A DNA stretch of 40,000 nucleotides from Aliiglaciecola sp. (GCA_965227085.1 CBDDFO010000002.1:1852126-1892125), one strand, 5' to 3'. Positions 4,581 to 28,898 are shown, counted from the first letter of the stretch. The notes: generated by a model from the letters alone, not told the origin. Translations and numbers: made by a program.

Positions 4581-4600
4581 AACTGTATAAATAAACAGTT
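4581..4600 (+). promoter_or_regulatory. LexA (SOS) box upstream of dinB
   Basis: AACTGTATAAATAAACAGTT equals CTGT-N8-ACAG, the gammaproteobacterial LexA consensus. It lies 21 nt upstream of the dinB ATG. Confidence 0.75.
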
Positions 4601-16253: not shown

Positions 16254-17213
16254 TTACCTATCCAAGGGGCTCGTTGTTCCAGAAGAATGCTGACCAATGA
16301 CATGCGTGTAAATTTGTGTTGTTCGCAAATCATTATGTCCAAGAAGCTCTTGCACTGTTCGTATGTCAGCACCTGAAAGAAGCAACTGTGTAGCAAACGA
16401 GTGCCTGAACGTATGTGCAGTTACGTGCTTCGTGACACCGGATTTCTTCACGGCTGCCCGTAGAGCTTTAGTCAATGCTGTCCAATGCAAATGATGACGA
16501 CAGTAGTAACCATCCACGGGATGTTGGCATCGAGTGGTCGATGGGAATAGATACTGCCACTTAAACTCTTTAATCGCATACGGATACTTCCTTGCAAGTC
16601 CTGGGGGGAGACTAGTTTCACCGCCACCTTCAGAAATGTCGCGTTGATGCAAGGCCTTCACTGACTCTATTTGCTTCTTCAGCGCAAGGACCAGATTATT
16701 TGGCAGCATAGTCACGCGGTCTTTTCCTCCTTTGCCGCGAAAGACAAATACGCTCTTGCCAGCAAAGTCGATATCTTTAATGCGGAGTTTAAGTAACTCT
16801 GCTTTACGTAACCCACAACCATAAAGCAACGAGAAGGCCAGTTTGTACTTCTCACTCATCTGACTGATTATGATAAGTGTCTCTTCATGACTAAGCACTG
16901 TGGGTACGCGCTTGGGTGCGCGGGCTCTCACAGTATCGGGTAGCAAGGTCAGTTCACGCTCGAATACATGCTTATACATAAACACGATAGCGCAGAGCGC
17001 AAGGTTCTGTGTTGATGAGGTGACATGGCGTTTAACGGCCAGGTAAGTTAGGAAGTCAGTCACTTCCTGCTCACCTAACTCTTTCGGGTGACGCTTCTGG
17101 TTAAACAGAATGAAACGTTTAATCCACAACAGATAGGATTTTTCTGTTTGGATAGAGTAATGCTTGGTGCGCATGATATTGCGAATTTGTTCTAGAAAAG
17201 GGCTCTGTCCCAT
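16254..17213 (-). CDS. intI: integron integrase
   Basis: Tyrosine recombinase with the IntI-specific extra segment (LARKYPYAIKEFKWQYLFPS...RHH). Catalytic residues are present (GLRKAE, HTFRHSFAT, GH, IYTHV) and there are no frameshifts. ATG 17213 follows a GGAG Shine-Dalgarno; the ORF track extends to TTG 17225. Confidence 0.92.
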   Translation of the reverse strand: MGQSPFLEQIRNIMRTKHYSIQTEKSYLLWIKRFILFNQKRHPKELGEQEVTDFLTYLAVKRHVTSSTQNLALCAIVFMYKHVFERELTLLPDTVRARAPKRVPTVLSHEETLIIISQMSEKYKLAFSLLYGCGLRKAELLKLRIKDIDFAGKSVFVFRGKGGKDRVTMLPNNLVLALKKQIESVKALHQRDISEGGGETSLPPGLARKYPYAIKEFKWQYLFPSTTRCQHPVDGYYCRHHLHWTALTKALRAAVKKSGVTKHVTAHTFRHSFATQLLLSGADIRTVQELLGHNDLRTTQIYTHVIGQHSSGTTSPLDR

Positions 17214-17240
17214 GAATATCTCCAATAAATAATGACGTGG

Positions 17241-17669
17241 AATTACTGAGAAGTCTCAGTAACACGCATCATAAAATTGGATTAATTGGCTTGTACCCTG
17301 CGCGATATATGGGTTTTTGTATAGTTTGGCGTTTGTAATTACTGAGAAGTCTCAGTAACACGCAATAAATTTACGTCATAATCATGCTGTAGGCCCCATC
17401 ATTGCTGAAAATGGGGTATGATTTGTATTTGTAATTAATGATAAGTCTTAGTAACACACACATTGACGCATCTAAAAATGCTAACGCATTGATTTACTTA
17501 TACTAGATTGCAAATTTAGCCCGTTATTACTGAGAAGTCTCAGTAATACGCATATAAAACGGTGTTTTTTTGTGTTGGAAAGGTTGTAAGCTACTGATAT
17601 TAAATACGAATATGGAGATTTGTTGCATGAAACCCACTGTGTGTTACTGTGAAGTCTTCATAATAAGAT
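17241..17669 (+). repeat. five direct copies of a ~28-bp element containing a 9-2-9 palindrome (TTACTGAGA-AG-TCTCAGTAA)
   Basis: Copies at 17241-17268 and 17337-17364 are identical. The copy at 17433-17460 has 4 mismatches, 17525-17552 has 2, and 17642-17669 is degenerate (17 of 28 match). Centre spacing is 96, 96, 92 and 117 bp, and the spacers are unrelated. Confidence 0.9.
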
Positions 17670-17953
17670 GTTATAGCGCGGGTTCTCTCTAAAGCTTAGT
17701 CCAATTCAGAAGTGGATTTCCGCTCAAATCTCCGAGCAAACAGGTGGTTGTTTTGCCAATCGGGCAAGGCTGTTTAAACGGGATTGCTCTTCACACCGAT
17801 TGCGCCAGTTGTCTTAACATTGCTCCAATGGGGACCACGAAATATCGGTTGTGGTTTTGTTCAAGGTTGGTTTAGTCTATGGGTAATAATTTTAATCATG
17901 TTGTTGTGCACACTCGTGGTGGCGGCAAAGCCGCGAAAGCTCAAAGGTTGGCG

Positions 17954-18051
17954 CAATAACAAACGTATGTTACGGACACATCCTCGCTGGCTTGGCTCGT
18001 GCCTCGCAATTTTAGCCAGCAAGTCTGCGCCGCAAATACAAAGCGTTATAT
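17954..18051 (+). other. attC site 1
   Basis: R'' CAATAAC ... R' GTTATAT, with internal dyad GCTGGC/GCCAGC and a central GCAATTTTAGCC block shared with attC 14 and 19. Confidence 0.7.
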
Positions 18052-18097
18052 TGCATGGTGTTTGATTGATCTGTAAAAGCCAACGGATAGGTAGTAT

Positions 18098-18298
18098 TTG
18101 AAGATGGAGTTGCTCACCTTAGTATTCGGTTTCTGGTTATTTCTCTTCAGTAAAATGTTTAGAGAAAGCTGGATATTTGAACTCAAAAAATCCAACCCAC
18201 TTTTTAAGTTCTTGCATGTAATTGAAGCCGGTATAGCTATTTTGATTGGTTTAGGTGCGCCTGTATTCGTTATTAAATTATTGATAGTGGGTGGGTAA
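18098..18298 (+). CDS. cassette 2: small 2-TM membrane protein (hypothetical)
   Basis: 66-aa ORF co-oriented with the array, with two hydrophobic segments. Weak Shine-Dalgarno. The cassette is only 338 bp. Confidence 0.4.
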   Translation: MKMELLTLVFGFWLFLFSKMFRESWIFELKKSNPLFKFLHVIEAGIAILIGLGAPVFVIKLLIVGG

Positions 18299-18302
18299 TG
18301 CA

Positions 18303-18389
18303 ATATAACAAGTTCATTAAGCAAGTTGCCGCTGAAAAGCGCGGCAAGGGACCCGCAAACTGCGCGGGCCCCTTATAAAAGCGTTATGC
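18303..18389 (+). other. attC site 2
   Basis: R'' ATATAAC ... R' GTTATGC. R'' is the reverse complement of G plus the cassette-2 start (TTATAT). Confidence 0.8.
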
Positions 18390-18748
18390 CTATGAATATT
18401 GATTACCAATCACTTATTCCGGTTGCTCTAAGAGCGCTGTATCCAGAAGAGGAAAAAAGAAAAGAAGTTGAACAGCTTCTTGAAGTTTACGGGACCGAAA
18501 CATTCCATAGAGAAAAATCCAGGGTAAGACTTGGTGTTCTTTATCTGGCATCACAAGAACCAGAAAAACTGGAATCATTTATTGATCTTGCATGTACTGA
18601 TTACCGAGACTTGCTCTGTGCGGCAGAATATCCGCACTCATCAAGACACTGGGGGCTTCAAGAGAAAGATCCTGAAAAATATAAAAAATTTCAGGTTAAA
18701 GAAGAGAAAGAGTATTTGGTATGGGTAGAAAGCATAAGCAATGCATAA
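18386..18748 (+). CDS. cassette 3: hypothetical cytosolic protein
   Basis: 120 aa. The ATG lies inside the R' core (GTTATGC) and the stop lies inside the next R'' (GCATAAC). No family recognised. Confidence 0.7.
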   Translation: MPMNIDYQSLIPVALRALYPEEEKRKEVEQLLEVYGTETFHREKSRVRLGVLYLASQEPEKLESFIDLACTDYRDLLCAAEYPHSSRHWGLQEKDPEKYKKFQVKEEKEYLVWVESISNA

Positions 18749-18828
18749 CAATTGCATTCACTGGAAAAAATAAAGCTACGCCGCTTCGCTCTGTAGCTTC
18801 ATTTTCCCAGTGATGCAGGGCGTTATGT
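18743..18828 (+). other. attC site 3
   Basis: R'' GCATAAC ... R' GTTATGT, with dyad CACTGG/CCAGTG. R'' complements the cassette-3 start TTATGC. Confidence 0.8.
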
Positions 18829-18849
18829 GTTTTCATGGTTGGGGGCAAT

Positions 18850-19185
18850 ATGCAAATTGAATCATTAGAGTCCTTGCAAAAAGAGGTTATAAACATCCTT
18901 AATGAAATAGATGTTGACGAACTGGAAGATGATTTAACTCATCAATTTATTGAGCATCATGTATTGACGTTGTCTTTGAAAGCTCACACATATAAAGAAA
19001 TGATTTTACGTAACAACCTTACTCGCGAAGAACAGCTAAAATTTAAAAAGTATCTTGGTATATATACTAAGTTAGAAGAGGCCGTTGCAGGTAGACTAGA
19101 TACGCTAACTACAGCAAAACTCTATGATCAAATCCTTACGTTTAAATCAATACTTGATGCCAATGTTACAGAACAAAACACATAA
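18850..19185 (+). CDS. cassette 4: hypothetical helical protein
   Basis: About 111 aa, charged and probably helical. ATG 18850 follows a G-rich Shine-Dalgarno; ATG 18835 is an alternative start. Confidence 0.7.
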   Translation: MQIESLESLQKEVINILNEIDVDELEDDLTHQFIEHHVLTLSLKAHTYKEMILRNNLTREEQLKFKKYLGIYTKLEEAVAGRLDTLTTAKLYDQILTFKSILDANVTEQNT

Positions 19186-19266
19186 CAAGCCAATCTTGTT
19201 TGGACGTTTACTCGCTGGCACTTCGTGCCAAAGCGCTCGCAAACGCCACAAATTGGAGCGTTAAGC
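19180..19266 (+). other. attC site 4
   Basis: R'' ACATAAC ... R' GTTAAGC. R'' complements the cassette-4 start TTATGT. Confidence 0.8.
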
Positions 19267-19578
19267 GCCGGGCAAGATACCAAAGAAGTACAGAAATCAA
19301 AACTAAGGCTAAAAACCGAACCTTGGTACAGTTAAATAGTTTTCAACTTTCGTGTACGCTTTAGCGTCTTGCGTCGCCTCAGAAACTCGTTTCTAAAGGG
19401 CAAAGCAAGACACTAAAGCAAGGAAGTCAAACTATGCAATGTGCCCGGATCCGGATACTCGGCTTAAATTTGCAGTCAGGACAACCGAGATGAACTCAAC
19501 TTATATGGTTGTTTTGCCATCGCTTAACAACCTGTTACACGACACCAGCAAAGAGCACTGGGTCGTGAACCAGAAACG
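19261..19578 (+). other. cassette 5: ORF-less structured cassette
   Basis: A bona fide cassette: it starts TTAAGC and its own R'' is GCTTAAC. There is no ORF of 60 aa or more on either strand. It contains a 15-bp imperfect stem (19358-19372 / 19405-19419) enclosing a nested 6-bp hairpin. Confidence 0.7.
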
Positions 19579-19584
19579 TTAGCT
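19522..19584 (+). other. attC site 5 (short, 63 bp)
   Basis: R'' GCTTAAC, L'' GTTACACGAC / L' GTCGTGAAC, R' GTTAGCT. Confidence 0.75.
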
Positions 19585-19591
19585 GTACAAA

Positions 19592-20062
19592 ATGAAATTC
19601 GAACTAATTAAATATACAGACCTAAACCGGAAGCATTTCGAAGAATCTCTTACATGGGCTCAATACTATGAACCTGATGACATCGAATCTCTCGAAGAAC
19701 TTGGTTTTGACCGTCAAGTGGTATCAGCGGAGTTGGAGAAAGTTGGTTGGTCTGACGAGTATTGGTTCGCGGTTCCAGAAGAAACTAAAGTTGGCTCATT
19801 TATGTTTGAGCACCGAAAGGCCAATTTTGTAACTGAATCTGGAAAGAAAATAGATGGCTATGTAGTAAACTCGGGACATTGTATTTGCTTGTTCGGCGCC
19901 GAAAAGGAATGGGATATAAATATCAATCTTCTTGACCTGTTGGAGGAAGAAATCGATGATCTTAGAGTTGATGTTGGCCTAAAAGAAAGTGAAAAGCTAC
20001 TGCCCCTAGAGGTACGCATTTCATTTAAGGGTGTTCAATTTACATTCGCAGAGAGCAGCTAA
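19592..20062 (+). CDS. cassette 6: hypothetical acidic cytosolic protein
   Basis: 156 aa, rich in Asp and Glu, with no TM segment. The ATG lies 8 nt after the attC. No family recognised. Confidence 0.8.
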   Translation: MKFELIKYTDLNRKHFEESLTWAQYYEPDDIESLEELGFDRQVVSAELEKVGWSDEYWFAVPEETKVGSFMFEHRKANFVTESGKKIDGYVVNSGHCICLFGAEKEWDININLLDLLEEEIDDLRVDVGLKESEKLLPLEVRISFKGVQFTFAESS

Positions 20063-20143
20063 CAAAGCTATGCATTTGACGTCAAAAAGCTTCGTTCGTT
20101 TCACTCACTGCACTATTTGCCGCAAATGATAGCGGCGTTATGG
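20057..20143 (+). other. attC site 6
   Basis: R'' AGCTAAC ... R' GTTATGG. R'' complements the cassette-6 start TTAGCT. Confidence 0.8.
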
Positions 20144-20157
20144 GTAAGAGAGTGAAC

Positions 20158-20427
20158 ATGAAAGTGCTAGTCGTTATTGTGGTTCTGTTGATGTGCTCGG
20201 CAGTTCTTCTAATGCGGTTTGGTTTTATCGTTTTTGACCGACACGTATTTGACTTTCAGGTTCAACCAATAATTAAAGCAGACAAAGTAACAAACATTAG
20301 AGAATACAAAATCATCCACGAATATATAGAGATGAGTTTTGAAAAAGACGCAGACAAGTTTGCTTCAGACCCTCTTTTCGTGAGACTAGATTCAATGTTG
20401 GGAGAATATGAAACAACTTACCCATAA
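20158..20427 (+). CDS. cassette 7: small N-terminally anchored protein (hypothetical)
   Basis: About 89 aa with an N-terminal hydrophobic helix (MKVLVVIVVLLMCSAVLLM). An alternative ATG at 20140 lies inside R'. Confidence 0.65.
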   Translation: MKVLVVIVVLLMCSAVLLMRFGFIVFDRHVFDFQVQPIIKADKVTNIREYKIIHEYIEMSFEKDADKFASDPLFVRLDSMLGEYETTYP

Positions 20428-20532
20428 CAAGGCGCTTAAATTCACTCACTTCGTTCGCTGGGACAATTTTTCATTGGCTGGCGCTTCGCGCAGTATAGCC
20501 AACTCAAATTGCCCCTTAGCTTTGCGTTATGT
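20422..20532 (+). other. attC site 7
   Basis: R'' CCATAAC ... CTGGGACAA / TTGCCCC boxes ... R' GTTATGT. Confidence 0.8.
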
Positions 20533-20537
20533 GACAG

Positions 20538-20903
20538 GTGGAAAATTTAACTTTTATGGCCTTAAGTGAATTCGAAATAAAGAAGATAGAAAAAGCTGCC
20601 AACGCTTTTTTAAATAAGCGTAGGCCGCCAGTGCATATTAGAAATGAGTTAGACATTGGTTGGCGGCTGGAGAAGCAATCAGTTTATATATATGAAACAC
20701 GTCCTGTTTGGAACAGCCCAAATGAATATCATGACCTGGATATGGCTAAAGCAACTTTTATCCGCGCTCAAGGTAAATGGAAAATTTTCTGGATGCGACA
20801 AGATCTAAAATGGCATGGCTATGAGCCAAATATGTATGTAAAAACTATTGAGCAAGTCTTTGCCGTTATAGGTCATGATGAATACGCTTGTTTTTTTGGG
20901 TAA
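20538..20903 (+). CDS. cassette 8: DUF3024-like protein
   Basis: 121 aa. The RRPPVHIRNELDIGWR...KWKIFWMRQDLKWHGYEP...DEYACFFG pattern matches what I recall of DUF3024. GTG start; an alternative ATG lies 6 codons in. Confidence 0.75.
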   Translation: MENLTFMALSEFEIKKIEKAANAFLNKRRPPVHIRNELDIGWRLEKQSVYIYETRPVWNSPNEYHDLDMAKATFIRAQGKWKIFWMRQDLKWHGYEPNMYVKTIEQVFAVIGHDEYACFFG

Positions 20904-20906
20904 GTC

Positions 20907-21015
20907 ACATAACAAAAAAATCAAGTTCGCCCGCTGCGCGGGCTGGGACGCAAGCACGCGGTGCGGCTTCGCCATTATGCCCCACGCGCCTGCGCCCCTT
21001 ATTTAAAAGTTATGT
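20907..21015 (+). other. attC site 8
   Basis: R'' ACATAAC ... GCTGGGAC / GCGCCCC boxes ... TTATTTAAAAGTTATGT. The 3' end is shared with attC 17. Confidence 0.8.
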
Positions 21016-21027
21016 GTATTTTCTGCC

Positions 21028-21375
21028 ATGAAATTAGATATTGCTCTGACATCAAAAGTTTATAGCAATTACTCGCTTGATGATTCCTCTCAGAAGGATT
21101 GGGATGAATTTAAATCAGAAAACAAATCGTATTTTGAAAAGTTACTCCCGATAACGATTGATACAGGAATAGACTTTGATAAACCCTGGGAGTTATCAAA
21201 ATTGGATAACTGTACCGTTATAGAGTATTTCTGCGCAGGAATGATGGATGAAGAATCTATTTTCTTAGATCATGATTATTATGGTATCAACCTTTGGAAA
21301 ACGAGTTGGCCAGGAGAGGCAAGTTTTGGTACAGATAAAATATTGTGCTTCGCAGTGGTTGTCGGTCACACATAA
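21028..21375 (+). CDS. cassette 9: hypothetical cytosolic protein
   Basis: 115 aa, acidic, with no TM segment. The stop lies inside R''. Confidence 0.7.
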   Translation: MKLDIALTSKVYSNYSLDDSSQKDWDEFKSENKSYFEKLLPITIDTGIDFDKPWELSKLDNCTVIEYFCAGMMDEESIFLDHDYYGINLWKTSWPGEASFGTDKILCFAVVVGHT

Positions 21376-21474
21376 CAAGTTGCCTAATTTCGCCGCAAAA
21401 AGCGCGGCTGGGACAAATACTCACAGGGCTTCGCCCAACAACGTTCGCATTTGCCCATTGGCAAAGCGTTATAT
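21370..21474 (+). other. attC site 9
   Basis: R'' ACATAAC ... GCTGGGACAAATAC / ATTTGCCCA ... R' GTTATAT. Confidence 0.8.
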
Positions 21475-21492
21475 GCTCAGAAAGTGGATGAA

Positions 21493-21765
21493 ATGATAGA
21501 AGCGCTAACTTACTTCGCACTCAGTTTGTATTTAGTTGTGAGCTTTTTTGTATCCATGTTTATCCTTAAAAGAGACGATCTTGATACATTTCAAAAATCA
21601 GCTCAAACAGTATTAGTTTGGTTAATACCACTTCTTGGCGCGCTCATTTTTTGGCGAGTAAACAAAAGTCATGATGTGGCTTTTAGGAGGGGGAGAGAGT
21701 TTGGTGGCGGTGCTAGCAAACTAGGTAGTTACGATTCTGCTGGAGACGGCGGTGGCAGTGATTAA
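21493..21765 (+). CDS. cassette 10: small 2-TM protein, PLDc_N-like, Gly-rich tail
   Basis: About 90 aa. It has two TM helices with a WLIPLLGALIFW motif reminiscent of the PLD-nuclease N-terminal (PLDc_N) family, and a C-terminal GGGASKLGSYDSAGDGGGSD tail. The ORF-track start at 21451 lies inside attC 9. Confidence 0.6.
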   Translation: MIEALTYFALSLYLVVSFFVSMFILKRDDLDTFQKSAQTVLVWLIPLLGALIFWRVNKSHDVAFRRGREFGGGASKLGSYDSAGDGGGSD

Positions 21766-21771
21766 AGTCGC

Positions 21772-21876
21772 ATATAACAAGGCAACACAATTCGGACCAA
21801 AATTCGCTGTCACATCTATTGCAAACAGCGCAACAAATGCGCCATCAACTTTTGGCCGTTGGTTTTGGCGTTATAT
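21772..21876 (+). other. attC site 10
   Basis: R'' ATATAAC ... R' GTTATAT. About 7 mismatches to attC 11 and 13 over ~100 bp by manual alignment. Confidence 0.85.
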
Positions 21877-21900
21877 GCCAAGAAGGAGATTCGACTATTG

Positions 21901-22269
21901 ATGTACATAGTGATTTTTTTAGTCGCATTATCGTGTATTGAATTGTTGATTTTGGCAGATAGAAAAAAGGGGATAGTTGCGTCTTCGGGAATGGCGGCCT
22001 TAATAACTATTTGCCTTTGTCTTTATTTCTACTTTGGTCAAGGCAGCTCTTATGCGAGAGAAATTCAGCCTCTAAATCTATTATTTACAAACTTGATAAT
22101 AGCAGCGGTGCCAACTCTTCTTTTCCTATATTTCGCTTATTTAAGCCGCAACTTTGAAGGAGCAATAGTTACTCATTCAATGGCACTCGCTTTTTCACTT
22201 GTAACTAGTTTCGGGTTTCCATTTTTTGTATTAGTTACCGGCTGCTACACTGGATTAGATTGTATTTAA
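21901..22269 (+). CDS. cassette 11: 4-TM membrane protein (hypothetical)
   Basis: About 122 aa with four hydrophobic segments. AAGGAG Shine-Dalgarno upstream of ATG 21901. Confidence 0.7.
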   Translation: MYIVIFLVALSCIELLILADRKKGIVASSGMAALITICLCLYFYFGQGSSYAREIQPLNLLFTNLIIAAVPTLLFLYFAYLSRNFEGAIVTHSMALAFSLVTSFGFPFFVLVTGCYTGLDCI

Positions 22270-22287
22270 AGGTTGTTTTAAGTTGGC

Positions 22288-22392
22288 ATATAACAAGGCA
22301 ACGCAAATCGGACCAAAACTCGCTGTCACATTTATTGCAAACGGCGCAACAAATGCGCCATCAAATTTTGGCCGTTGGTTGCGGCGTTAGGT
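22288..22392 (+). other. attC site 11
   Basis: R'' ATATAAC ... R' GTTAGGT. The internal ~98 bp differ from attC 13 at a single position. Confidence 0.85.
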
Positions 22393-22396
22393 ACAC

Positions 22397-22831
22397 ATGG
22401 ATAGTTCAGGCATATTCTTAAATATTGGCAAAAGTATTCTAGCTCTCGCTATAGCACTTTTCGTTATTTTTTGGTTCCCAAGTCCTGCTTTTGATGCCTG
22501 TTTTCCTGATAATAGTTCTTACGTGTGTAGCCAATGGCCCAAGATATTTGCTGGGTGTGTGTTTATCTTAGTTTCATACTTTCTCGGCCCTAAAAGTAAA
22601 TATCACTATTTTCCTGTTTTCATGCTTTTTGCGTACATTGGTAGTGCGGAGCACATCAGGTTTGGTGGGCAACTTTTAGATGTCCTATTTCAAATGCCGT
22701 TCCAAACATTTTACTACGGCGGCATCATTGCTTTAGTAGTAATTACTGCGGTAAAGTTTATAAAACGTAACTGGGTGCAAAGTGTACCTAACAAGCTAAT
22801 AAATAAGGACTATGTTCCTCCCCCGTTTTAG
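22397..22831 (+). CDS. cassette 12: 4-TM membrane protein (hypothetical), 3' end altered by IS insertion
   Basis: 144 aa with four hydrophobic segments. Removing the IS and one CTA copy restores ...AAG GAC TAA, so the IS replaces the stop and adds YVPPPF. Confidence 0.7.
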   Translation: MDSSGIFLNIGKSILALAIALFVIFWFPSPAFDACFPDNSSYVCSQWPKIFAGCVFILVSYFLGPKSKYHYFPVFMLFAYIGSAEHIRFGGQLLDVLFQMPFQTFYYGGIIALVVITAVKFIKRNWVQSVPNKLINKDYVPPPF

Positions 22832-22864
22832 TGGACACCTCCTCTTTACAATGAGGAGGGCAAA

Positions 22865-23239
22865 ATGCCTCGATATACACAACCAAGAAAGACATGGTTT
22901 TATCCGATAGATTTCAAAATTAAGGCAGTCGAACTAAGCTTACAGAACGATGTAATGTCCAAGGATGTTGCTCAAGCACTTGATATTCACCCGCTAATGC
23001 TAAGCCGTTGGCGTAAAGAATATCGAGAAGGTAAATTTTCCCAAACGTCCCGCTACCAAAGCAGCAATGAATTAATGAGTAAAGTCCCGACTAAAAGAGA
23101 GCTTGGTTCAATTCAAAAGCTCAAAAAAGAAAACGAACGTTTGAGGCAGGAGAATGACCTGCTAAAAAAGTGGCAACGGTATCTGGCGGAAGTACATCAG
23201 AACGATTTGGATTCATCCAAAGATTCGGTCAAACGCTAG
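22865..23239 (+). CDS. IS3-family transposase OrfA (HTH)
   Basis: 124 aa with an N-terminal helix-turn-helix-like region and a leucine-zipper-like C-terminus (KKENERLRQENDLLKK). Confidence 0.9.
   Translation: MPRYTQPRKTWFYPIDFKIKAVELSLQNDVMSKDVAQALDIHPLMLSRWRKEYREGKFSQTSRYQSSNELMSKVPTKRELGSIQKLKKENERLRQENDLLKKWQRYLAEVHQNDLDSSKDSVKR
23164..23170 (+). promoter_or_regulatory. programmed -1 ribosomal frameshift site (A AAA AAG)
   Basis: The A6G heptamer is in the orfA zero frame (cta AAA AAG tgg), at the start of the orfA/orfB overlap. This is typical for IS3-family OrfAB fusions. Confidence 0.75.
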
Positions 23240-24057
23240 GCGTCAGATACTTATGCTCTTGGCTGAAGGTTTCTCGCAGCGGCTATTATGCTTGGTGCAA
23301 TCGTCCAATATCGGCTCGTGCTATTTCTGACATTGATTTGCTATCTCAAATAGAGCGAGTCTTTAATGCAAATCATCAAACGTACGGCAGTCCTAGGATA
23401 TTCCAGGCCCTTAAACGAGAAGGCGTTAGAACGAGCAGAAAGCGTGTGGCGCGTTTGATGCAGGAAAATGGATTACAAGCGCGAGCATTGAGGACTTACA
23501 GCAAGCCTGCAAAGGTTAAGCTCTTCTACAGCGAGATTGAAAACAGACGCAAAGAAATCGGTAAACCTACGGCAATTAACCAACAGTGGTCAGGTGACAT
23601 AACCTACTTGAAGGTGGGGACGAGCTGGCACTATTTGGCGGTCGTCATCGATTTGTTTTCACGCCGTATTGTCGGTTGGGCATTTGGGAACAATAAAACC
23701 ACTAAGTTGACTCTTAAAGCACTTAAGCTTGCTATGAAAAAACGAAAACCCATGAATGCCATTGTATTTCATACAGATAGAGGCGCTGAATACCGAGCAC
23801 ATGTGGTTCAAACCTTTTTGGCGAGCCACAATATTACGGCCAGCATGAACCGTCCTGGATGCTGCACAGACAACGCTGAAGTGGAGTCCTTTTTTCATTC
23901 ATTAAAGGCAGACCTAATTCGAGGGAATAGGTTCGATAAAGCAACAAACTTGCACTCTAGGTTAAAGGGGTACTTGAATTACTTCTACAATAGACAGCGT
24001 TTGCATTCGAGCTTAGGATATAAAACACCTGCCGAGTTTGAGTTGGCAGCAAATTAA
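23170..24057 (+). CDS. IS3-family transposase OrfB (DDE/rve domain)
   Basis: rve integrase-core blocks (WSGDITYL, HTDRGAEYRA, CCTDNAEVESFFHSLK). Probably expressed as an OrfAB fusion. Confidence 0.9.
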   Translation: MATVSGGSTSERFGFIQRFGQTLGVRYLCSWLKVSRSGYYAWCNRPISARAISDIDLLSQIERVFNANHQTYGSPRIFQALKREGVRTSRKRVARLMQENGLQARALRTYSKPAKVKLFYSEIENRRKEIGKPTAINQQWSGDITYLKVGTSWHYLAVVIDLFSRRIVGWAFGNNKTTKLTLKALKLAMKKRKPMNAIVFHTDRGAEYRAHVVQTFLASHNITASMNRPGCCTDNAEVESFFHSLKADLIRGNRFDKATNLHSRLKGYLNYFYNRQRLHSSLGYKTPAEFELAAN

Positions 24058-24178
24058 AAAATGGAGGTGTCCATTTTTGCGGGGGAAGATCACTAAAAAC
24101 AGTTTGCTGTTTTCGTTCCTCAACATTTTAGCAAACTATTTTTAGCCCATTATTAGGGCGTTATGCATTGTGGACAAA

Positions 24179-24532
24179 ATGAATAAACTACCAATTGTTT
24201 TGTTAGTAATCGCGGTCTGTGTCACATTGGTTTCATATGATTTGTTTGTTAACTTTGGACTGCTAGACACTTATGGCGAATTTTACAGATTAATAGTGAG
24301 CCCAATTGCCCCGAGCAGTGAGGTGGAGATGCGCCCAGTGGGCGTGTTTTTGGAAGAGGAACATTTCGGGCTTGGGGCTGTAGGCCTGACTTGCACGATA
24401 CTATTGGTTGCAATAGCAATTGAAGCTAAAAGGTATAAGGTATTTGGTAAATCCAAACGGTCTTCTGGCGTTGTGGCGCTTTCAACAGCCACGTTATTCG
24501 TCAACATTCAATTGTTATGGTGGCTCTTGTAA
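24179..24532 (+). CDS. cassette 13: 3-TM membrane protein (hypothetical)
   Basis: About 117 aa with three hydrophobic segments. Start is ATG 24179 or GTG 24170. Confidence 0.65.
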   Translation: MNKLPIVLLVIAVCVTLVSYDLFVNFGLLDTYGEFYRLIVSPIAPSSEVEMRPVGVFLEEEHFGLGAVGLTCTILLVAIAIEAKRYKVFGKSKRSSGVVALSTATLFVNIQLLWWLL

Positions 24533-24533
24533 T

Positions 24534-24638
24534 GCATAACAAGGCAACGCAAATCGGACCAAAACTCGCTGTCACATTTATTGCAAACGGCGCAACAAAT
24601 GCGCCATCAACTTTTGGCCGTTGGTTGCGGCGTTAGCA
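24534..24638 (+). other. attC site 13
   Basis: R'' GCATAAC ... R' GTTAGCA. Near-identical to attC 11. Confidence 0.85.
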
Positions 24639-24654
24639 TTACTACAAACTATTG

Positions 24655-24975
24655 ATGAAAAACCTTAATGTAAACTGCCCAAACTGTCATTCAAGTTTTA
24701 ATGTGTTTTCGATGTGGGCAAAACAAACCAAACTAAATCACTACAAATGTAATTTTTGCGGTGAAACAAGTACATTTGAGGGTGCCAACGCAAGCGCTAT
24801 TGTTAATATCATTTCAATTGCCACATTCTTCGTATTAGGAATAGTCGCAATTGAATATTCGGGTAGTTGGTTAGGCTTAGTGGTACCAGGGATTTTGTAT
24901 TTACCTTTGGGTTACCTATGCCATCTACGTAATTGTAAAAATAAAAAGCTTTGTCTCGTTAAAAGGCAATGCTAA
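24655..24975 (+). CDS. cassette 14: zinc-ribbon + 2-TM protein (hypothetical)
   Basis: N-terminal CPNC...CNFC pair (a zinc-ribbon-like pair of CxxC motifs) followed by two TM helices and a basic Cys-containing tail. Confidence 0.7.
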   Translation: MKNLNVNCPNCHSSFNVFSMWAKQTKLNHYKCNFCGETSTFEGANASAIVNIISIATFFVLGIVAIEYSGSWLGLVVPGILYLPLGYLCHLRNCKNKKLCLVKRQC

Positions 24976-25069
24976 CAAGGCGCTCAAGCAAGGAATTTTA
25001 AAGTTTGGCTCGGCTCGTGCCTCGCCAATTTTAGCCAAACTCTAAAATCCTCTTAGCTTGTCGTTAAGC
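24970..25069 (+). other. attC site 14
   Basis: R'' TGCTAAC ... GCCAATTTTAGCC centre ... R' GTTAAGC. Confidence 0.8.
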
Positions 25070-25085
25070 AAACAAGGATAGTCCA

Positions 25086-25550
25086 ATGAAATTTGTAATT
25101 ACGTTAATTTCCTTAATTATTTTCTCACTAACTGCTTTTGCGGATGAGACATTGTCTGAAAGTGAGCTAAAACAAAAAGCTGAAGCATTCATACAAGCGA
25201 AAAATGCGAGGCAACAACCAAACACAACCGTTGAAGACATAGATCATTTCATTTCATTTTTGGCTGATGAATTCATTGATGAACATCTGAAATTTAATGT
25301 CACTACGACAAGTAAGGAAGAACTTCGACAAGGAATGATAGCGAAGATGAAAGACAAGGTAATCTTCAGTGAAATTAAAATTGACCAGATGATGTTTGGA
25401 CGCAATGTGGTATTCGTCAAATATACGGAACACGCTAAAGTCAAACCTAGCCACATGGATAAGGTCATAGAGTATACAAGCACTAATATAATGTCTCTAG
25501 AGTTTGGTGATAATGGTCTTATCAAACATATTCGTAGACATCATGCGTAA
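25086..25550 (+). CDS. cassette 15: secreted protein, possibly NTF2/SnoaL-like fold
   Basis: 154 aa with a signal peptide (MKFVITLISLIIFSLTAFA). The fold assignment is a weak impression only. Confidence 0.7.
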   Translation: MKFVITLISLIIFSLTAFADETLSESELKQKAEAFIQAKNARQQPNTTVEDIDHFISFLADEFIDEHLKFNVTTTSKEELRQGMIAKMKDKVIFSEIKIDQMMFGRNVVFVKYTEHAKVKPSHMDKVIEYTSTNIMSLEFGDNGLIKHIRRHHA

Positions 25551-25556
25551 GTGTTT

Positions 25557-25643
25557 GCTTAACAAGCCGTTTAACGAAAACGCCAGCAAACAACACTGGC
25601 ACGGACTCGCAAACTGCGCTCGCCCGTTAACGGAGCGTTATGT
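25557..25643 (+). other. attC site 15
   Basis: R'' GCTTAAC ... dyad CCGTTTAACG/CGTTAACGG ... R' GTTATGT. Confidence 0.8.
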
Positions 25644-25686
25644 TTTTCTGCAAATTAATAGGGATTTTAAAAAGGAATTGAATTAA

Positions 25687-26220
25687 ATGAAGTTCTTTAA
25701 GTTTACAGCGTTAATATTGGTTGTTGTCATTATTACCGCCATATTGTCATACCAGAAAATCATCTCAGATATATTGATACCCCAATATGTTGACTGGGCT
25801 TACGAAACCGAAAGAAAAGGCTTGGATTCCGGAGTTCCTTTAAACTCACGAGAATTAGCTTTGGCAGCCGAGATAGGAATTAAAAAACCAGAGAACGTCA
25901 GGATTGTACATTTTGATGAAGTTCCGTTTCCACACGAAAACTTCGCTCTAAAGACATTAGGTGAAGCACTAGGCTTCATTGGTGAAGGTATCACTAACAA
26001 TGCTCAGGCTTTTGGTTATTCTATTTATGTTCGTAACGGATATGAATTAAATAGGCCCAAATTGGCTCATGAATTGGTTCACGTGCTTCAAATAGAAAGG
26101 TCCAATCTTGACCAAGTGATAACTCAGCACTTCTCTGACATAGCAGAATTTGGTTATGACAAAGCACCTCTAGAAGTCGAGGCTTTTAAAGCAAACAAAC
26201 AGTATGCAGCCGATTGGTAG
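25687..26220 (+). CDS. cassette 16: membrane-anchored HExxH zinc-metallopeptidase-like protein
   Basis: 177 aa with an N-terminal TM helix. The AHELVHVLQ motif (HExxH followed by xxQ) resembles the DUF4157-type peptidase motif. Confidence 0.75.
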   Translation: MKFFKFTALILVVVIITAILSYQKIISDILIPQYVDWAYETERKGLDSGVPLNSRELALAAEIGIKKPENVRIVHFDEVPFPHENFALKTLGEALGFIGEGITNNAQAFGYSIYVRNGYELNRPKLAHELVHVLQIERSNLDQVITQHFSDIAEFGYDKAPLEVEAFKANKQYAADW

Positions 26221-26241
26221 TTAAACGTTGTGGTATAAAAA

Positions 26242-26358
26242 ACATAACAATCGCATAAACACTCGCTTCGCTCGCAGGGGACAAATACACGTAGGCTTCC
26301 CTCGCTTTGCTCGGTATTTTAGCCTACGTATATTTGCCCGTTATGCGGGCCGTTAGCC
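26242..26358 (+). other. attC site 16 (117 bp)
   Basis: R'' ACATAAC ... GGGGACAAATAC / TATTTGCCCG ... R' GTTAGCC. Confidence 0.8.
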
Positions 26359-26373
26359 TACTGGGAACGTACG

Positions 26374-26796
26374 ATGTTTTTCCTAAGTTTTTTCATCTTT
26401 CTCGGCACATTGATATTGGGTTTCTGGTTCGGTAATTCCTTAGGGTTATTTACCGATTTAACATTTCCAACTATTCTGTTATTGGTCTTGCTACCTAGTA
26501 TTACTTTTACAATTTATGCGAATTCCCTATCAGCTATAAAGCAATCATTCGCAGACTTAAATAGTGGCGGTAAAAGCCTCATTGCTCAAAAAGTTTTAAA
26601 GTGCTTTGGCAACACGTCACTTTTAATAGGTATTGCAGTCACTCTCTTAAATATCTTATCAATCGCTTTTAATTGGGGGACACCTGTTACACCTGCATAC
26701 CTAGCAGCTGCATTTTCAACGGCGTTACTATCAAGTTTCATCGGCTTGGTTATAAAAATTTGCTGTGTAGTTGGTTTTTATAAGGCTCAGGGGTAG
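26374..26796 (+). CDS. cassette 17: 4-TM membrane protein, faint MotA/TolQ/ExbB-like C-terminal half
   Basis: 140 aa. The GNTSLLIGIAVTLLNI...PAYLAAAFSTALLSSFIGLV pattern resembles the last two helices of the MotA/ExbB channel family. Tentative. Confidence 0.65.
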   Translation: MFFLSFFIFLGTLILGFWFGNSLGLFTDLTFPTILLLVLLPSITFTIYANSLSAIKQSFADLNSGGKSLIAQKVLKCFGNTSLLIGIAVTLLNILSIAFNWGTPVTPAYLAAAFSTALLSSFIGLVIKICCVVGFYKAQG

Positions 26797-26800
26797 AGTA

Positions 26801-26905
26801 GGCTAACAAAAAAATTAAAACGTGCGCGGGGCGCACTGGGACAAAAACACAGCGCCGCTTCGCGATTGTAGCGCTGTATTTTTGCCCTTTATTTAAAAGT
26901 TATAC
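26801..26905 (+). other. attC site 17
   Basis: R'' GGCTAAC ... CTGGGACAAAAAC / TTTTTGCCC ... TTATTTAAAAGTTATAC. Confidence 0.8.
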
Positions 26906-26919
26906 GCCAGAATGAGTTC

Positions 26920-27498
26920 ATGTCGTTGAAGAAAAAACTAAGAAGTATTATCTCATTTTTATTTGCTTCCACAGCTCTTGTTTGTGTGCTGAATATTATT
27001 GATTTTCCATATGAATTTAGATTTATTGAGCGCCAATATGATTACTTGTTTGTTACTGTCTTGTGTATCTTACTTCCAACTACGGCTTTTCTATGGTCAA
27101 TAATTTGTATCAAGCAAAATTGGTATAAACTAACTGGTATCATTGCTGTGTTAGGTTTATCTCTGTTTTGTTATTTTATTGGATTATTTTCTTATGGAGA
27201 CTATCAGGAAATTGGTGCATCTGGCGTTGACTTTTCATTTGAAGAAATTGAAAGGTTGAATTTCGAGAACAAAAGCTATGTTTTGTATCGCACAAATGGC
27301 GGGGCTACCACAGCATTTGGACTTGTACTGAGAACAGAATATCCTTTTTTAGATATGTTTAAATTAATTCACCGAACATACGATAAATATGAGGCTTACG
27401 AAGGGCACTTGAAGCCAAAAAATAACGAGCAGTTTTCTCTAACTATAGAGCCATATTCCGAAGGCGAAAAGGTGGAAGTTTTATGGTTCAAGATTTAG
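26920..27498 (+). CDS. cassette 18: 3-TM N-terminus + soluble C-terminal domain (hypothetical)
   Basis: 192 aa with three hydrophobic segments followed by a ~90-aa hydrophilic domain. No family recognised. Confidence 0.7.
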   Translation: MSLKKKLRSIISFLFASTALVCVLNIIDFPYEFRFIERQYDYLFVTVLCILLPTTAFLWSIICIKQNWYKLTGIIAVLGLSLFCYFIGLFSYGDYQEIGASGVDFSFEEIERLNFENKSYVLYRTNGGATTAFGLVLRTEYPFLDMFKLIHRTYDKYEAYEGHLKPKNNEQFSLTIEPYSEGEKVEVLWFKI

Positions 27499-27499
27499 C

Positions 27500-27583
27500 G
27501 TATAACAAGCGACTTATGCCGCCAAACAAGTTTGGCTGTGACACAGCGGCTGCGCCACTGCGCACCATAGTCGAACGTTAGTT
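27500..27583 (+). other. attC site 18
   Basis: R'' GTATAAC ... R' GTTAGTT. R'' complements the cassette-18 start TTATAC. Confidence 0.8.
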
Positions 27584-27606
27584 GTACTTAATCTGAGTCA
27601 GAGTAA

Positions 27607-27978
27607 ATGGAAGAATTCGAAGTGAAAATACCTACCGATATCGAAATTGCAGAAGCTCAAGAAAAGCTAGGTTTCACTTTTCCACCCGAATATGTGGCAT
27701 TCATTAAATCTGGATATGATCTAGGGGATGCTCCTCTTGAAGCATTGGAAATCGTCGATCCTCCTAGTTATGCAGACATATATGAAGCTTTGGTGAGTGC
27801 TCGAAAATTTTATGATTTACCTGTTGAGCTTATGCCTATCTGTGAAGACAACTCCGATTACTATTGCATCAATAATCATGGTGAAGTGGTGTTTTGGTCG
27901 CACAATGGAACTACCGATGAAAAGTGGGCAAACGTAACTGTATGGCGTAATCAAATGGTTCTAGAGGCTGGCGAATAA
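27607..27978 (+). CDS. cassette 19: SMI1/KNR4 (SUKH-1) family protein, immunity-protein-like
   Basis: 123 aa. The EAQEKLGFTFPPEYVAFIKSGY...DYYCIN...VVFWSH pattern is typical of SUKH/SMI1-KNR4 domains. Confidence 0.8.
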   Translation: MEEFEVKIPTDIEIAEAQEKLGFTFPPEYVAFIKSGYDLGDAPLEALEIVDPPSYADIYEALVSARKFYDLPVELMPICEDNSDYYCINNHGEVVFWSHNGTTDEKWANVTVWRNQMVLEAGE

Positions 27979-27983
27979 CGTAC

Positions 27984-28086
27984 AACTAACAAGGCCGTTA
28001 AACCATGGACACAAAACAGCAGGCTTGTGCTCCTTCGTCGCCAATTTTAGCCTGCTATTTTGTGCCGTTTACGGCAAGCGTTAAAT
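27984..28086 (+). other. attC site 19
   Basis: R'' AACTAAC ... GCCAATTTTAGCC centre ... R' GTTAAAT. Confidence 0.8.
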
Positions 28087-28102
28087 ACACAAGGACTGTA
28101 TA

Positions 28103-28467
28103 TGAACCGCAATCCTCTCGACGAAGTAATAGATAGACCTATAAAAGCTTCGCCAGAAACTATAGCCGAGCTGTCAGAATTCTTATCCAAATCAAAATTT
28201 CTTGAACTTCCTGGAATTGATAACGAAGATGAGAAAAAGAAGTTATCTGTTTTGCTAGATGGCGTTTTGAATTCACTGATCAATGGGCTTTCAGAAAACC
28301 CGACGAAAAAATGGGTAATGCAGCAATTTTGTTCAGCTTTAGGAGCTGTGGAAGACAGTGATACAGAAGTTCGAGACCATTTCGGAGAATACCTAGAGCT
28401 GATAATGGATATTCTAGAAATTGAAAGTTCTGACGGTGTTTTGGGGTTCTATTTAGGCCATGTCTGA
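28103..28467 (+). CDS. cassette 20: hypothetical cytosolic protein
   Basis: About 121 aa from ATG 28103 (AAGGA upstream), acidic and probably helical. The ORF-track start at 28060 lies inside attC 19. Confidence 0.7.
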
Positions 28468-28476
28468 TAGGATGGT

Positions 28477-28526
28477 ATTTAACAAGAAAATGCATGCGAA
28501 TAAAAGCGCTCGCATTTCCGTTGCTT
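28477..28526 (+). other. attC site 20 (very short, atypical 3' half)
   Basis: R'' ATTTAAC exactly complements the cassette-20 start TTAAAT, which supports a real boundary. Only a 6-bp inner stem (ATGCGA/TCGCAT) is present, and R' is GTTGCTT. Confidence 0.55.
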
Positions 28527-28554
28527 GGGGCGATATGAGTAATCAGGAATCAAT

Positions 28555-28836
28555 GTGATTGATCGTATCAAGACACTAATTGAAGGTAGTTTTTCTGAAG
28601 GTCTAGCAGTTAGCTTAGCTTCCCTAATCTGGAGCATAGACGCTCAGGAACATTGTATTCCAACATCAGATGAGATTAATGAAGGGCTAAAGTGTATTCA
28701 TAAGTATCAGCTTTGTCGTACAGGCGGAGACATCGAAATTCTTCCCTCAGAAGAACCATGTAATGAGCAAGTTTCTGAACTCGACATTAAAAAATCCATG
28801 GAAGTCTATGTATCAGAAATTGGACTAACTAAATAA
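28555..28836 (+). CDS. cassette 21: hypothetical protein
   Basis: 93 aa with a GTG start preceded by AGGA. The stop lies just before an R''-like TCATAAC. Confidence 0.55.
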   Translation: MIDRIKTLIEGSFSEGLAVSLASLIWSIDAQEHCIPTSDEINEGLKCIHKYQLCRTGGDIEILPSEEPCNEQVSELDIKKSMEVYVSEIGLTK

Positions 28837-28837
28837 T

Positions 28838-28898
28838 TCATAACAATCACAGGTAGTCGACGCGAAAAAGGCCAGCGCAACTGCTGCAAGCGTTGAAC
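28838..28898 (+). other. attC site 21 (terminal, uncertain 3' boundary)
   Basis: R'' TCATAAC ... R' GTTGAAC, which fits GTTRRRY perfectly, but inner pairing is weak. An alternative partner for GGTAGTCGAC lies at 28963-28973. Confidence 0.45.

Follow-up and report, generated by a model that had tools for sequence, protein, structure and literature searches.

An apparently complete chromosomal integron in Aliiglaciecola sp. with phased palindromes between intI and attI

Introduction

Is the array of short open reading frames (ORFs) that runs away from a recombinase gene in this DNA an integron, and what governs the expression of its integrase? The DNA in question is a stretch of 40,000 nucleotides from Aliiglaciecola sp. 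(GCA_965227085.1, CBDDFO010000002.1:1852126-1892125), referred to here as the window; all positions are counted from its first letter. An earlier note on this DNA, made from the sequence alone, had described 16254-28898 as a chromosomal integron of about 21 cassettes. Our analysis leaves us close to certain that a complete chromosomal integron is present, in a marine gammaproteobacterium that resembles the Alteromonadaceae. The integrase gene, intI, lies at 16254-17213 on the minus strand and diverges from ~21 cassettes that occupy 17671-28892 and share one direction. The most interesting part of the locus is the control region between intI and the attachment site attI, where five palindromes are found and a LexA box is not; the remainder is an ordinary complete chromosomal integron.

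The integrase gene

The ORF at 16254-17225 matches the NCBIfam model TIGR02249 'integron integrase' with 417 bits, over profile positions 1-314 of 315 (the cut-off of this model is 265 bits). The product scores far under the cut-offs of both the XerC and the XerD model, and below that of the class-1 equivalog model (282 bits against 435). Its Pfam domains are Phage_integrase and a SAM-like N-terminal domain. The alignment to VchIntIA (PDB 2A3V) runs end to end, with an E-value of 2e-83 and 44% identity; the IntI-specific segment aligns without gaps around residues 190-245, and the equivalents of all the catalytic residues (R135, K160, H267, R270, H293 and Y302) are kept. Identity to the plasmid-borne IntI1 is 43%. 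The reading frame is uninterrupted, and its likely start is the ATG at 17213, which has GGAG upstream. The earlier note had called intI apparently intact, facing away from the array and equipped with the IntI-specific segment and every catalytic residue, and had named a disrupted intI as an observation that would speak against its reading. The gene agrees with this description on each point, and no disruption was found.

Cassette boundaries and attC sites

In the array, 21 sites were located in which an R'' box (...AAC) is followed by an R' box (GTT...), at the coordinates implied by the earlier note. For cassettes 2-20, the hexamer that follows the G|TT crossover is the reverse complement of the R'' box of the same cassette in 19 of 19 cases, each with 6/6 matches. 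The 19 boundaries that had been proposed on this ground are thus confirmed, as are the three examples given for them (cassettes 5, 17 and 20). The R' box adjoining a given R'' in the array is part of the following cassette, and it matches that same R'' at 3-6 of the 6 positions (mean ~4), perfectly in only 2 of 19 cases. This asymmetry between a cassette's own R'' and its neighbour's R' is expected if the units were once circular and were cut between G and TT. An unsupervised chain search found 19 linked units in the array against no more than 5 in the 16-kb and 11-kb flanks; over 200 shuffles it averaged 2.9 units and never exceeded 9. The complementarity of the start hexamer to the cassette's own R'' is a long-known textbook property of cassette boundaries, and the circular-permutation test is a neat application of that property which is not itself new.

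By the established mechanism of integrons, IntI, a tyrosine recombinase, would recombine the folded bottom strand of an attC site with attI or with another attC, cutting the R box between G and TT. Cassettes, as circles without a promoter, would be inserted at attI (G17670|T17671) and excised from the array. Once integrated, a cassette would start with six bases, TTRRRY, that formerly made up half of its own R' box, which is why this start should be a perfect complement of its own R''. Some 20 cassettes would have accumulated in this manner, all reading away from intI, so that transcription from the platform (the palindromes plus attI) would express the first of them. It is from this mechanism that we infer present-day recombination and expression from a platform promoter.

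The sites were also folded as single-stranded DNA of the bottom strand. Sites 1-20 fold better than shuffled sequence, with z scores between -2.3 and -7.5, and pairing of the AAC/GTT bases of the R box could be forced at no cost or at a cost of at most 1.7 kcal/mol in 20 of the 21. The folds with forced pairing consist of the R box, an unpaired spacer or internal loop, the L stem and then a variable end; unpaired bases are biased to the 3' arm (66 vs 44 nt). In the attC alignment the only invariant positions are AAC/GTT together with TAAC...GTTA (AAC and TTGTTA). We looked for a common orientation, R''/R' boxes, an imperfect L''/L' dyad, a spacer, extra-helical bases and a length of ~57-141 nt, and 19 sites, 63-117 nt long, display all of these features (attC12 after restoration, at 98 nt, is described below). 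Site 20 is a borderline case, with a length of 50 nt and an atypical R' (GTTGCTT), and its fold has a z score of -4.0. Site 21 does not show this set of features.

The earlier count of about 21 cassettes is confirmed, with weak sites at the end of the array: 20 of the 21 sites fold as attC, while the start of cassette 21 matches its own R'' at 2/6 positions and the fold of site 21 is no better than shuffled sequence (z -0.5). A similar qualification applies to the imperfect dyad RYYYAAC...GTTRRRY that was said to follow each ORF. The AAC...GTT core is present everywhere, but the R boxes often depart from the strict consensus (ATATAAC is an example), and a scan of the whole window for strict RYYYAAC plus GTTRRRY returned 7 candidates, none of which is one of the array sites. 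The positions of start and stop codons are as had been noted. In two cases R' contains the start codon (ATG 18386 in GTTATGC and ATG 20140 in GTTATGG), and most stop codons are in R'' or a few bases from it. Rfam was also consulted, and there is no attC family in that database.

The position of attI was read from an alignment of the intI-proximal regions of ten relatives (from Alteromonas, Aliiglaciecola, Glaciecola, Aestuariibacter and Rheinheimera). All of them are conserved through ...CATAATAAGATG|TTA and unrelated past that point. In several relatives, including two that have no intI (L149 and L114; L numbers designate the related loci compared), the chain of cassettes begins exactly at the G homologous to G17670. 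Since conservation ends at G|TTA, we place the predicted attI crossover at G17670|T17671, which makes 17671-18045 the first cassette. The start of this cassette, TTATAG, matches its own R'' (CAATAAC) at 5/6 positions. In the same alignment a conserved block, GTAAGCTAnTGATAT, precedes attI. By eye, an IHF consensus (WATCAANNNNTTR) can be matched within the conserved block GTATTGTTATCAATAAATTATG of L154, L123, L134 and other loci. This block lies between palindrome copy 4 and attI and aligns to ~17600-17625 of the window, whose counterpart, TGATATTAAATACG, appears to fit the IHF consensus less well.

An insertion sequence within attC12

One attC site of the array, attC12, is split by an insertion sequence (IS) of the IS3 family. 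Its ends were placed by comparison with intact attC homologues in other integron loci; attC counterparts of the right-hand part of attC12, with identities of up to 96%, are found in 23 such loci. The element has inverted repeats with 29 of 40 positions matching and is bounded by a 3-bp target duplication, CTA (22810-22812 and 24093-24095). Removal of the element restores an attC12 of 98 nt with a hairpin z score of -4.7, and returns the stop codon of the cassette-12 ORF, which then encodes 138 aa, to the inside of the attC. With the element in place this ORF is longer by a few codons. The duplication is intact and the insertion looks recent.

Relatives, mobility and chromosomal setting

Scanning a single genome for each species gave 231 relatives of IntI, of which the best, 86-91% identical, belong to Alteromonas, Aliiglaciecola and Glaciecola. 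At the DNA level the window and the related loci have intI, the platform and single attC sites in common, but not the flanks or the cassette genes. Cassette 19 is an exception. A protein identical to its product is encoded in L081, a 3.7-kb contig (GCA_036984005.1, JALAAR010000037.1), where positions 3184-3605 are 99.8% identical in DNA to the window from 27576, one base before the crossover G. The identity stops 14 nt into the attC, past which the contig is unrelated; the neighbours of the copy in L081 are DUF6678, DUF1496 and Barstar/Cys-rich cassettes. Such identity in another genome argues for recent transfer, and on the strength of this comparison we regard mobility as demonstrated for one cassette. 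Apart from cassette 19, no cassette ORF has a match closer than 38% within 1.7 Mb of related integron loci. Families of attC sites at 74-96% identity are common to the window and to arrays of Colwellia, Alteromonas and Glaciecola, which suggests that a pool of cassettes is shared by several genera.

The %GC of the array (38-42%) is lower than that of its flanks (45-50%). The flanks contain nqrD and nqrF near the left end of the window, dinB, and genes for a TonB-dependent receptor, a metallo-hydrolase, a GNAT protein and a PilJ-domain protein. When the flanks were compared with plasmids, no close match was obtained, the only similarity being that of the nqr genes at 75-76% identity, and no transposition genes flank the platform. 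By these comparisons the locus is chromosomal and resident. The classical definition of Vibrio-type integrons calls for a chromosomal location and ~20 or more cassettes, and this locus has both, with 20-21 cassettes.

The closest known copy of the platform is on a plasmid, the 237-kb pTE101a of Alteromonas macleodii Te101 (L202, NZ_CP018322.1), at 17540-18966, with an IntI 90% identical to that of the window. The PLSDB gene table does not annotate this integron and omits its intI, and the array of this plasmid contains an IS110 element.

Palindromes between intI and attI

A 31-nt repeat with the palindrome TTACTGAGAAGTCTCAGTAA at its centre occurs five times between intI and attI (Table 1); the palindrome has the form TTACTGAGA-NN-TCTCAGTAA and can also be given as GGnnATTACTGAGA-NN-TCTCAGTAATAnnCC. 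The copies are spaced 96, 96, 92 and 117 nt apart, the spacers between them are mutually unrelated, and no copy is expected by chance. The palindrome is conserved in integrons across the Alteromonadales. In the alignment of relatives its columns are 85-94% conserved, against 66% elsewhere in the intergenic region. Two to five copies occur at fixed offsets from intI in 28 of 80 genome loci, all 28 of which have an IntI at least ~72% identical to that of the window. The loci that share the position of copy 2 with the window (L002, L088 and pTE101a) are its nearest relatives. The two central bases of the palindrome are free to vary and its orientation appears to flip among relatives; both features point to a symmetric site for a DNA-binding protein and not to an RNA element. 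In the direction of intI, a -10-like hexamer, TATAAT or TATGAT (TATGAT in the window), stands directly upstream of copy 1. If this hexamer marks the promoter, copy 1 would span positions ~+3 to +22 of its transcript for intI.

That integron integrase promoters can be under SOS (LexA) control was reportedly described by Guerin in 2009. No LexA box (CTG-N10-CAG) is found here in 17101-17760. A canonical one, AACTGTATAAATAAACAGTT, is present at 4581-4600, 20 nt upstream of dinB (DNA polymerase IV, 4621-5679; NF002677, 519 bits), and this ordinary SOS box makes the absence of a LexA box at intI meaningful. The distribution of the two elements among relatives follows the similarity of their IntI proteins. 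Where IntI is less than 70% identical to that of the window, a LexA box is present in 20 of 33 loci and the palindrome in none. At 70-78% identity, a group of mostly Colwellia-type loci, 31 of 43 have a LexA box, 39 of 43 the palindrome and 30 of 43 both, the distance to the ATG being ~16 nt for the LexA box and ~79 nt for the palindrome. At 78% or more, the window's own region included, the LexA box is found in 0 of 22 and the palindrome in 16 of 22, where its distances are ~29 and 125 nt. Nine members of the 70-78% group, Rheinheimera and Alishewanella among them, are of the window type, with no LexA box and a palindrome at ~29 nt.

Several identities were considered for the palindrome and set aside. 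It occupies the position at which LexA boxes lie in other integrons, but its spacing is CTG-N8-CAG as opposed to CTG-N10-CAG. This spacing, its coexistence with true LexA boxes in the same loci and the canonical box at dinB indicate that it is not a LexA site. Judged by eye, it also seems not to be a site of the CRP type or a dif-like site for Xer, as either the half-sites or the spacing are at odds with this. A genome-wide repeat of the REP type is contradicted by the metagenomic occurrences, since all the contexts inspected are integron platforms. A variant palindrome, TTACTATGCATGCATAGTAA, is found upstream of intI in the Glaciecola-type loci L013, L011/L012, L015, L016 and L050; it has the outer TTACT...AGTAA in common with the palindrome of the window, differs from it in the centre, and occurs alongside a proximal copy of the TTACTGAG type.

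A search of the literature for the palindrome sequence turned up no published description. A 2022 review lists LexA, CRP, FIS, IHF, H-NS and PsrA as regulators of integrons, and no such palindrome (PMC8876359). LexA control is prevalent in marine integrons according to Cambray et al. 2011, who linked its loss to inactivation of the integrase (PMC3108266). The present locus departs from that link in that the LexA box has been lost yet the integrase is intact.

Candidate binders of the palindromes

What binds the palindromes bears directly on how intI is regulated. We see an even chance that intI is free of LexA control in this lineage and is controlled instead by a dimeric DNA-binding protein that occupies the five phased palindromes. 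Copy 1 would then cover the transcription start of intI, and copies 4 and 5 would bracket the conserved block adjoining attI. Conservation of each 9-bp half-site up to the 2-bp centre of the dyad is what a repressor would predict, the phasing of ~95 bp resembles that of looping repressors, and platforms with no intI nearby retain well-conserved palindromes. Other observations weigh against a repressor. IntI is the sole recurrent neighbour, and no separate binding protein emerged from the comparisons. The contexts inspected among 80 metagenomic palindrome hits are all integron platforms or remnants, with which IntI as the binder fits at least equally well. In addition, a promoter consensus scan of the platform gave a single weak site (17355-17382), where chance alone would give 2.9.

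The main alternative, which we hold to be possible but rather doubtful, is that IntI itself binds the five palindromes as accessory sites, in the manner of DR1 and DR2 at attI1, and that they would serve the assembly of a complex at attI and the autoregulation of intI. The integron nature of all the metagenomic contexts inspected and the recurrence of IntI as their only gene neighbour speak for it, as does the way in which the attI-proximal copy merges into the L-like box of attI (TCTCAGTAAT vs TCTTCATAAT). The variant TTACTATGCATGCATAGTAA moreover tracks a different sub-lineage of IntI, and copy 1 is at the likely transcription start of intI. The structure of the palindrome fits less well, for half-sites conserved up to a 2-bp centre are what helix-turn-helix dimers typically have, whereas the core site of a tyrosine recombinase has a spacer of 6-8 bp. 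The GTAAC half-site, furthermore, occurs in 0 of the 21 attC R boxes of this array, and the palindromes stay well conserved in platforms that have no intI. That the binder is something else, neither a separate repressor nor IntI, we consider unlikely.

Platforms without an integrase gene

Where the sequence of a metagenomic platform extends more than ~1.1 kb towards the intI side, intI is absent in 13 cases and present in 10. The contigs with palindromes plus attI but without intI are L086, L087, L105, L114-L118, L123, L138, L149 and L154, and none of them has the gene within 1-13 kb. An attC in the same orientation precedes the platform in L086, L087, L105 and L158, and L136 has two platforms in tandem, each followed by one cassette (~250-604 and 1440-1772 on the reverse complement). 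No tRNA or tmRNA gene was found adjoining the intI-less platforms. These platforms may be secondary attI sites inside arrays whose intI lies further upstream. A platform that lacks intI, is sometimes in tandem and has cassettes at its attI may also be a portable secondary site of capture and expression. In its general form this proposal holds that integrons of this Alteromonadales lineage are controlled through a previously undescribed platform, with two to five helically phased palindromes of 20-30 bp bound by a repressor or by IntI; that in the branch of the window this platform takes the place of the SOS/LexA box of other integrons, the box being gone and the integrase intact; and that the intI-less copies may be portable secondary capture-and-expression sites. 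We would put this at somewhat below an even chance.

Alternative readings of the locus

Some of the evidence does not favour a complete integron of the classical kind. Mean pairwise identity of the attC sites is 56%, and attC10, 11 and 13 alone are 89-95% alike. This heterogeneity is unlike that of classical Vibrio-type sedentary integrons, the definition of which calls for more than ~80% attC similarity within the array. The last two sites (20 and 21) are weak. An energy-based scan for AAC...GTT with a forced R box gave 129 hits over the window on both strands, and is therefore unspecific. No consensus structure emerged when 20 sites were aligned with MAFFT and submitted to RNAalifold, because the variable centres of the attC sites misalign. 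Finally, the intI of pTE101a has an internal stop codon, from which it follows that decay occurs in this lineage.

These points have to be weighed in choosing between a complete integron and three other readings. The most serious of these is that of a frozen relic, an integron complete in sequence whose array is no longer reshuffled and whose footprints are old. The IS inside attC12, the two degenerate distal sites, the imperfect match (5/6) of cassette 1 to its own R'' and the nonsense mutation in the nearest platform copy can all be cited for it, and so can the absence of the LexA box in the light of the tie between losing control by LexA and inactivation of the integrase (Cambray et al. 2011, PMC3108266). 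But the intI frame of the window is open and its catalytic residues are all conserved, nineteen boundaries still match at 6/6, the near-identity of cassette 19 in another genome argues for recent transfer, and the IS, with its intact 3-bp duplication, looks recent and affects one site. We accordingly think a relic improbable, although worth keeping in mind.

An integron that is mobile on a transposon or plasmid, and not resident in the chromosome, would fit the heterogeneous attC sites, which are as in mobile integrons, and the occurrence of a platform with a 90% identical IntI on a 237-kb plasmid. The setting of the locus makes this very improbable: the flanks are of a housekeeping type (among them nqrD, nqrF, a TonB-dependent receptor, and dinB preceded by a LexA box) and, apart from the nqr genes with their modest similarity, match no plasmid closely, transposition genes are not found beside the platform, and 21 cassettes are far above what is usual for mobile integrons. 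As for the possibility that the repeats are ordinary intergenic palindromes or terminators and the recombinase an unrelated phage-type integrase, short G+C-poor hairpins are indeed common after genes, and a simple hairpin scan finds many AAC...GTT hairpins throughout the window. Terminators, however, cannot yield the agreement of start and own R'' in 19 of 19 cassettes, the integron-specific integrase model is matched far above its cut-off, and homologous sites adjoin intI in other genomes. This last reading can be considered refuted already. The locus is thus one more well-delimited chromosomal array of a known type, with heterogeneous attC sites and one IS.

Comparison with known integrons

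The integron of Vibrio cholerae (a superintegron) resembles the present one in its divergent intI, its attI, its long one-directional array of small, mostly unknown genes and its attC hairpins. VchIntIA aligns over its full length and has the catalytic residues in common with the integrase described here, but the identity is only 44%. The two differ in the number of cassettes (~180 against ~21) and in their repeats, which are near-identical VCR sequences in V. cholerae. The present array has no recognised toxin-antitoxin cassette, and its intI has no LexA box upstream, in contrast to the V. cholerae integron. Plasmid pTE101a is similar to the window in IntI and in the five palindromes of its platform; homology ends at the same attI crossover, and its array contains attC8-like and attC16-like sites that are 89% identical. 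It differs in being plasmid-borne, in the stop codon within intI and in having no cassette ORF in common with the window. With the class 1 mobile integrons the locus shares the logic of recombination and the G|TT cassette boundaries, whereas its IntI is 43% identical to theirs, it is chromosomal, and it is without resistance cassettes. In attI1, IntI1 also binds two further repeats, DR1 and DR2, that lie upstream of the core; the accessory repeats here are 20-bp palindromes ~95 bp apart.

Cassette contents

The features of the locus are listed in Table 1. Every ORF of the array reads away from intI. The products of only three cassettes match Pfam above the curated cut-offs, those of cassettes 8 (DUF3024), 19 (SUKH_5) and 20 (DUF4844), in keeping with the earlier statement that nearly all of them lack a family that can be named. 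The cassette 8 product matches DUF3024 with an E-value of 2e-34 and also matches, over its full length, the PADLOC candidate-defence model PDC-S43 (E-value 3e-48), which indicates membership of a candidate defence family only. A homologue 38% identical is encoded in the array of L099, and attC8 has homologues of 74-89% identity in other integron arrays. The cassette 19 product belongs to the SUKH_5 / SMI1-KNR4 family, which is of an immunity type (Pfam, 2.4e-24). No other cassette product was matched in the PADLOC search, and no toxin-antitoxin cassette was recognised among the products of the array. The earlier note had proposed the cassettes as a source of new defence or immunity functions; this is still a suggestion, and the leads are limited to cassettes 8 and 19.

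Other cassettes offer some clues. The product of cassette 16 has an N-terminal membrane helix followed by HELVH (HExxH) and matches no family above threshold, which suggests a small zinc peptidase anchored in the membrane. The attC16 site has counterparts of 86-89% identity in L016, L134 and pTE101a. The product of cassette 14 has membrane helices, and its zinc-ribbon matches are weak and below the Pfam cut-offs. The site attC17 is 95% identical to one in the Alteromonas aquimaris array L004. The sole ORF of cassette 1 (17784-18065, 93 aa) crosses attC1 and is doubtful. Cassette 5 contains no ORF of at least 50 aa, and its RNA fold is unusually strong (z -5.65). A search of Rfam returned nothing at the gathering thresholds and, in E-value mode, one chance miRNA hit, and no homologue of this cassette was found among the related integron loci compared. 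It may be a non-coding or small-peptide cassette.

Table 1. Features of the Aliiglaciecola integron locus in window coordinates
Feature	Position	Strand	Remarks
intI	16254..17213	-	integron integrase, 319 aa from ATG 17213; open frame reaches TTG 17225
Palindrome copy 1	17243..17262	.	TTACTGAGAAGTCTCAGTAA; 18 nt from intI frame end; 94% column conservation in 11 relatives
Palindrome copy 2	17339..17358	.	exact; aligned position only in window, L002, L088 and pTE101a
Palindrome copy 3	17435..17454	.	3 mismatches
Palindrome copy 4	17527..17546	.	exact
Palindrome copy 5	17644..17676	+	degenerate, fused with attI; comparative alignment
attI boxes	L-like TCATAAT 17658-17664; spacer AAGAT; R box GTTATAG 17670-17676	+	alignment
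Cassette 1	17671..18045	+	attC1 17955-18051 (97 nt)
Cassette 2	18046..18383	+	ORF 18098-18298 (66 aa, hydrophobic); attC2 18303-18389
Cassette 3	18384..18822	+	ORF 18386-18748 (120 aa, ATG in R'); attC3 18743-18828
Cassette 4	18823..19260	+	ORF 18835-19185 (116 aa); attC4 19180-19266
Cassette 5	19261..19578	+	no ORF of at least 50 aa inside; attC5 19522-19584 (63 nt)
Cassette 6	19579..20137	+	ORF 19592-20062 (156 aa, acidic); attC6 20057-20143
Cassette 7	20138..20526	+	ORF 20140-20427 (95 aa, ATG in R'); attC7 20422-20532
Cassette 8	20527..21009	+	ORF 20538-20903 (121 aa), DUF3024; attC8 20907-21015
Cassette 9	21010..21468	+	ORF 21028-21375 (115 aa); attC9 21370-21474
Cassette 10	21469..21870	+	ORF frame 21451-21765 (membrane protein, start uncertain); attC10 21772-21876
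Cassette 11	21871..22386	+	ORF frame 21859-22269 (multi-pass membrane protein); attC11 22288-22392
Cassette 12	22387..24160	+	ORF from 22397; attC12 = 22786-22812 + 24096-24166
IS3-family insertion sequence	22813..24092	+	1280 bp, TG...CA ends, HTH_Tnp_1 and rve
IS frames	orfA 22865-23239; orfB 23170-24057	+	overlapping; HTH transposase, rve (DDE)
Cassette 13	24161..24632	+	ORF 24170-24532 (120 aa, membrane); attC13 24534-24638
Cassette 14	24633..25063	+	ORF 24652-24975 (107 aa); attC14 24970-25069
Cassette 15	25064..25637	+	ORF 25086-25550 (154 aa, signal-peptide-like N terminus); attC15 25557-25643
Cassette 16	25638..26352	+	ORF 25687-26220 (177 aa); attC16 26242-26358
Cassette 17	26353..26899	+	ORF 26374-26796 (140 aa, membrane); attC17 26801-26905
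Cassette 18	26900..27577	+	ORF 26920-27498 (192 aa, membrane); attC18 27500-27583
Cassette 19	27578..28080	+	ORF 27607-27978 (123 aa); attC19 27984-28086
Cassette 20	28081..28520	+	ORF 28102-28467 (121 aa), DUF4844; attC20 28477-28526
Possible cassette 21	28521..28892	+	ORF 28555-28836 (93 aa); terminal site 28838-28898, degenerate

Significance

The array offers ~20 cleanly bounded cassettes, nearly all of them without a family, for screens of phage defence and immunity; integron cassettes are already in use for phage-defence screening (e.g. bioRxiv 10.1101/2024.07.02.601719). The control region matters more than the array itself. If the palindromes are indeed a regulatory or assembly element, a whole lineage of marine integrons would have freed the capture of cassettes from the SOS response and linked it to a different signal, one that integron biology does not list at present (PMC8876359). 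If the proposal for the intI-less platforms is also true, the presence of such platforms inside arrays would change the view of how integron arrays grow and are expressed.

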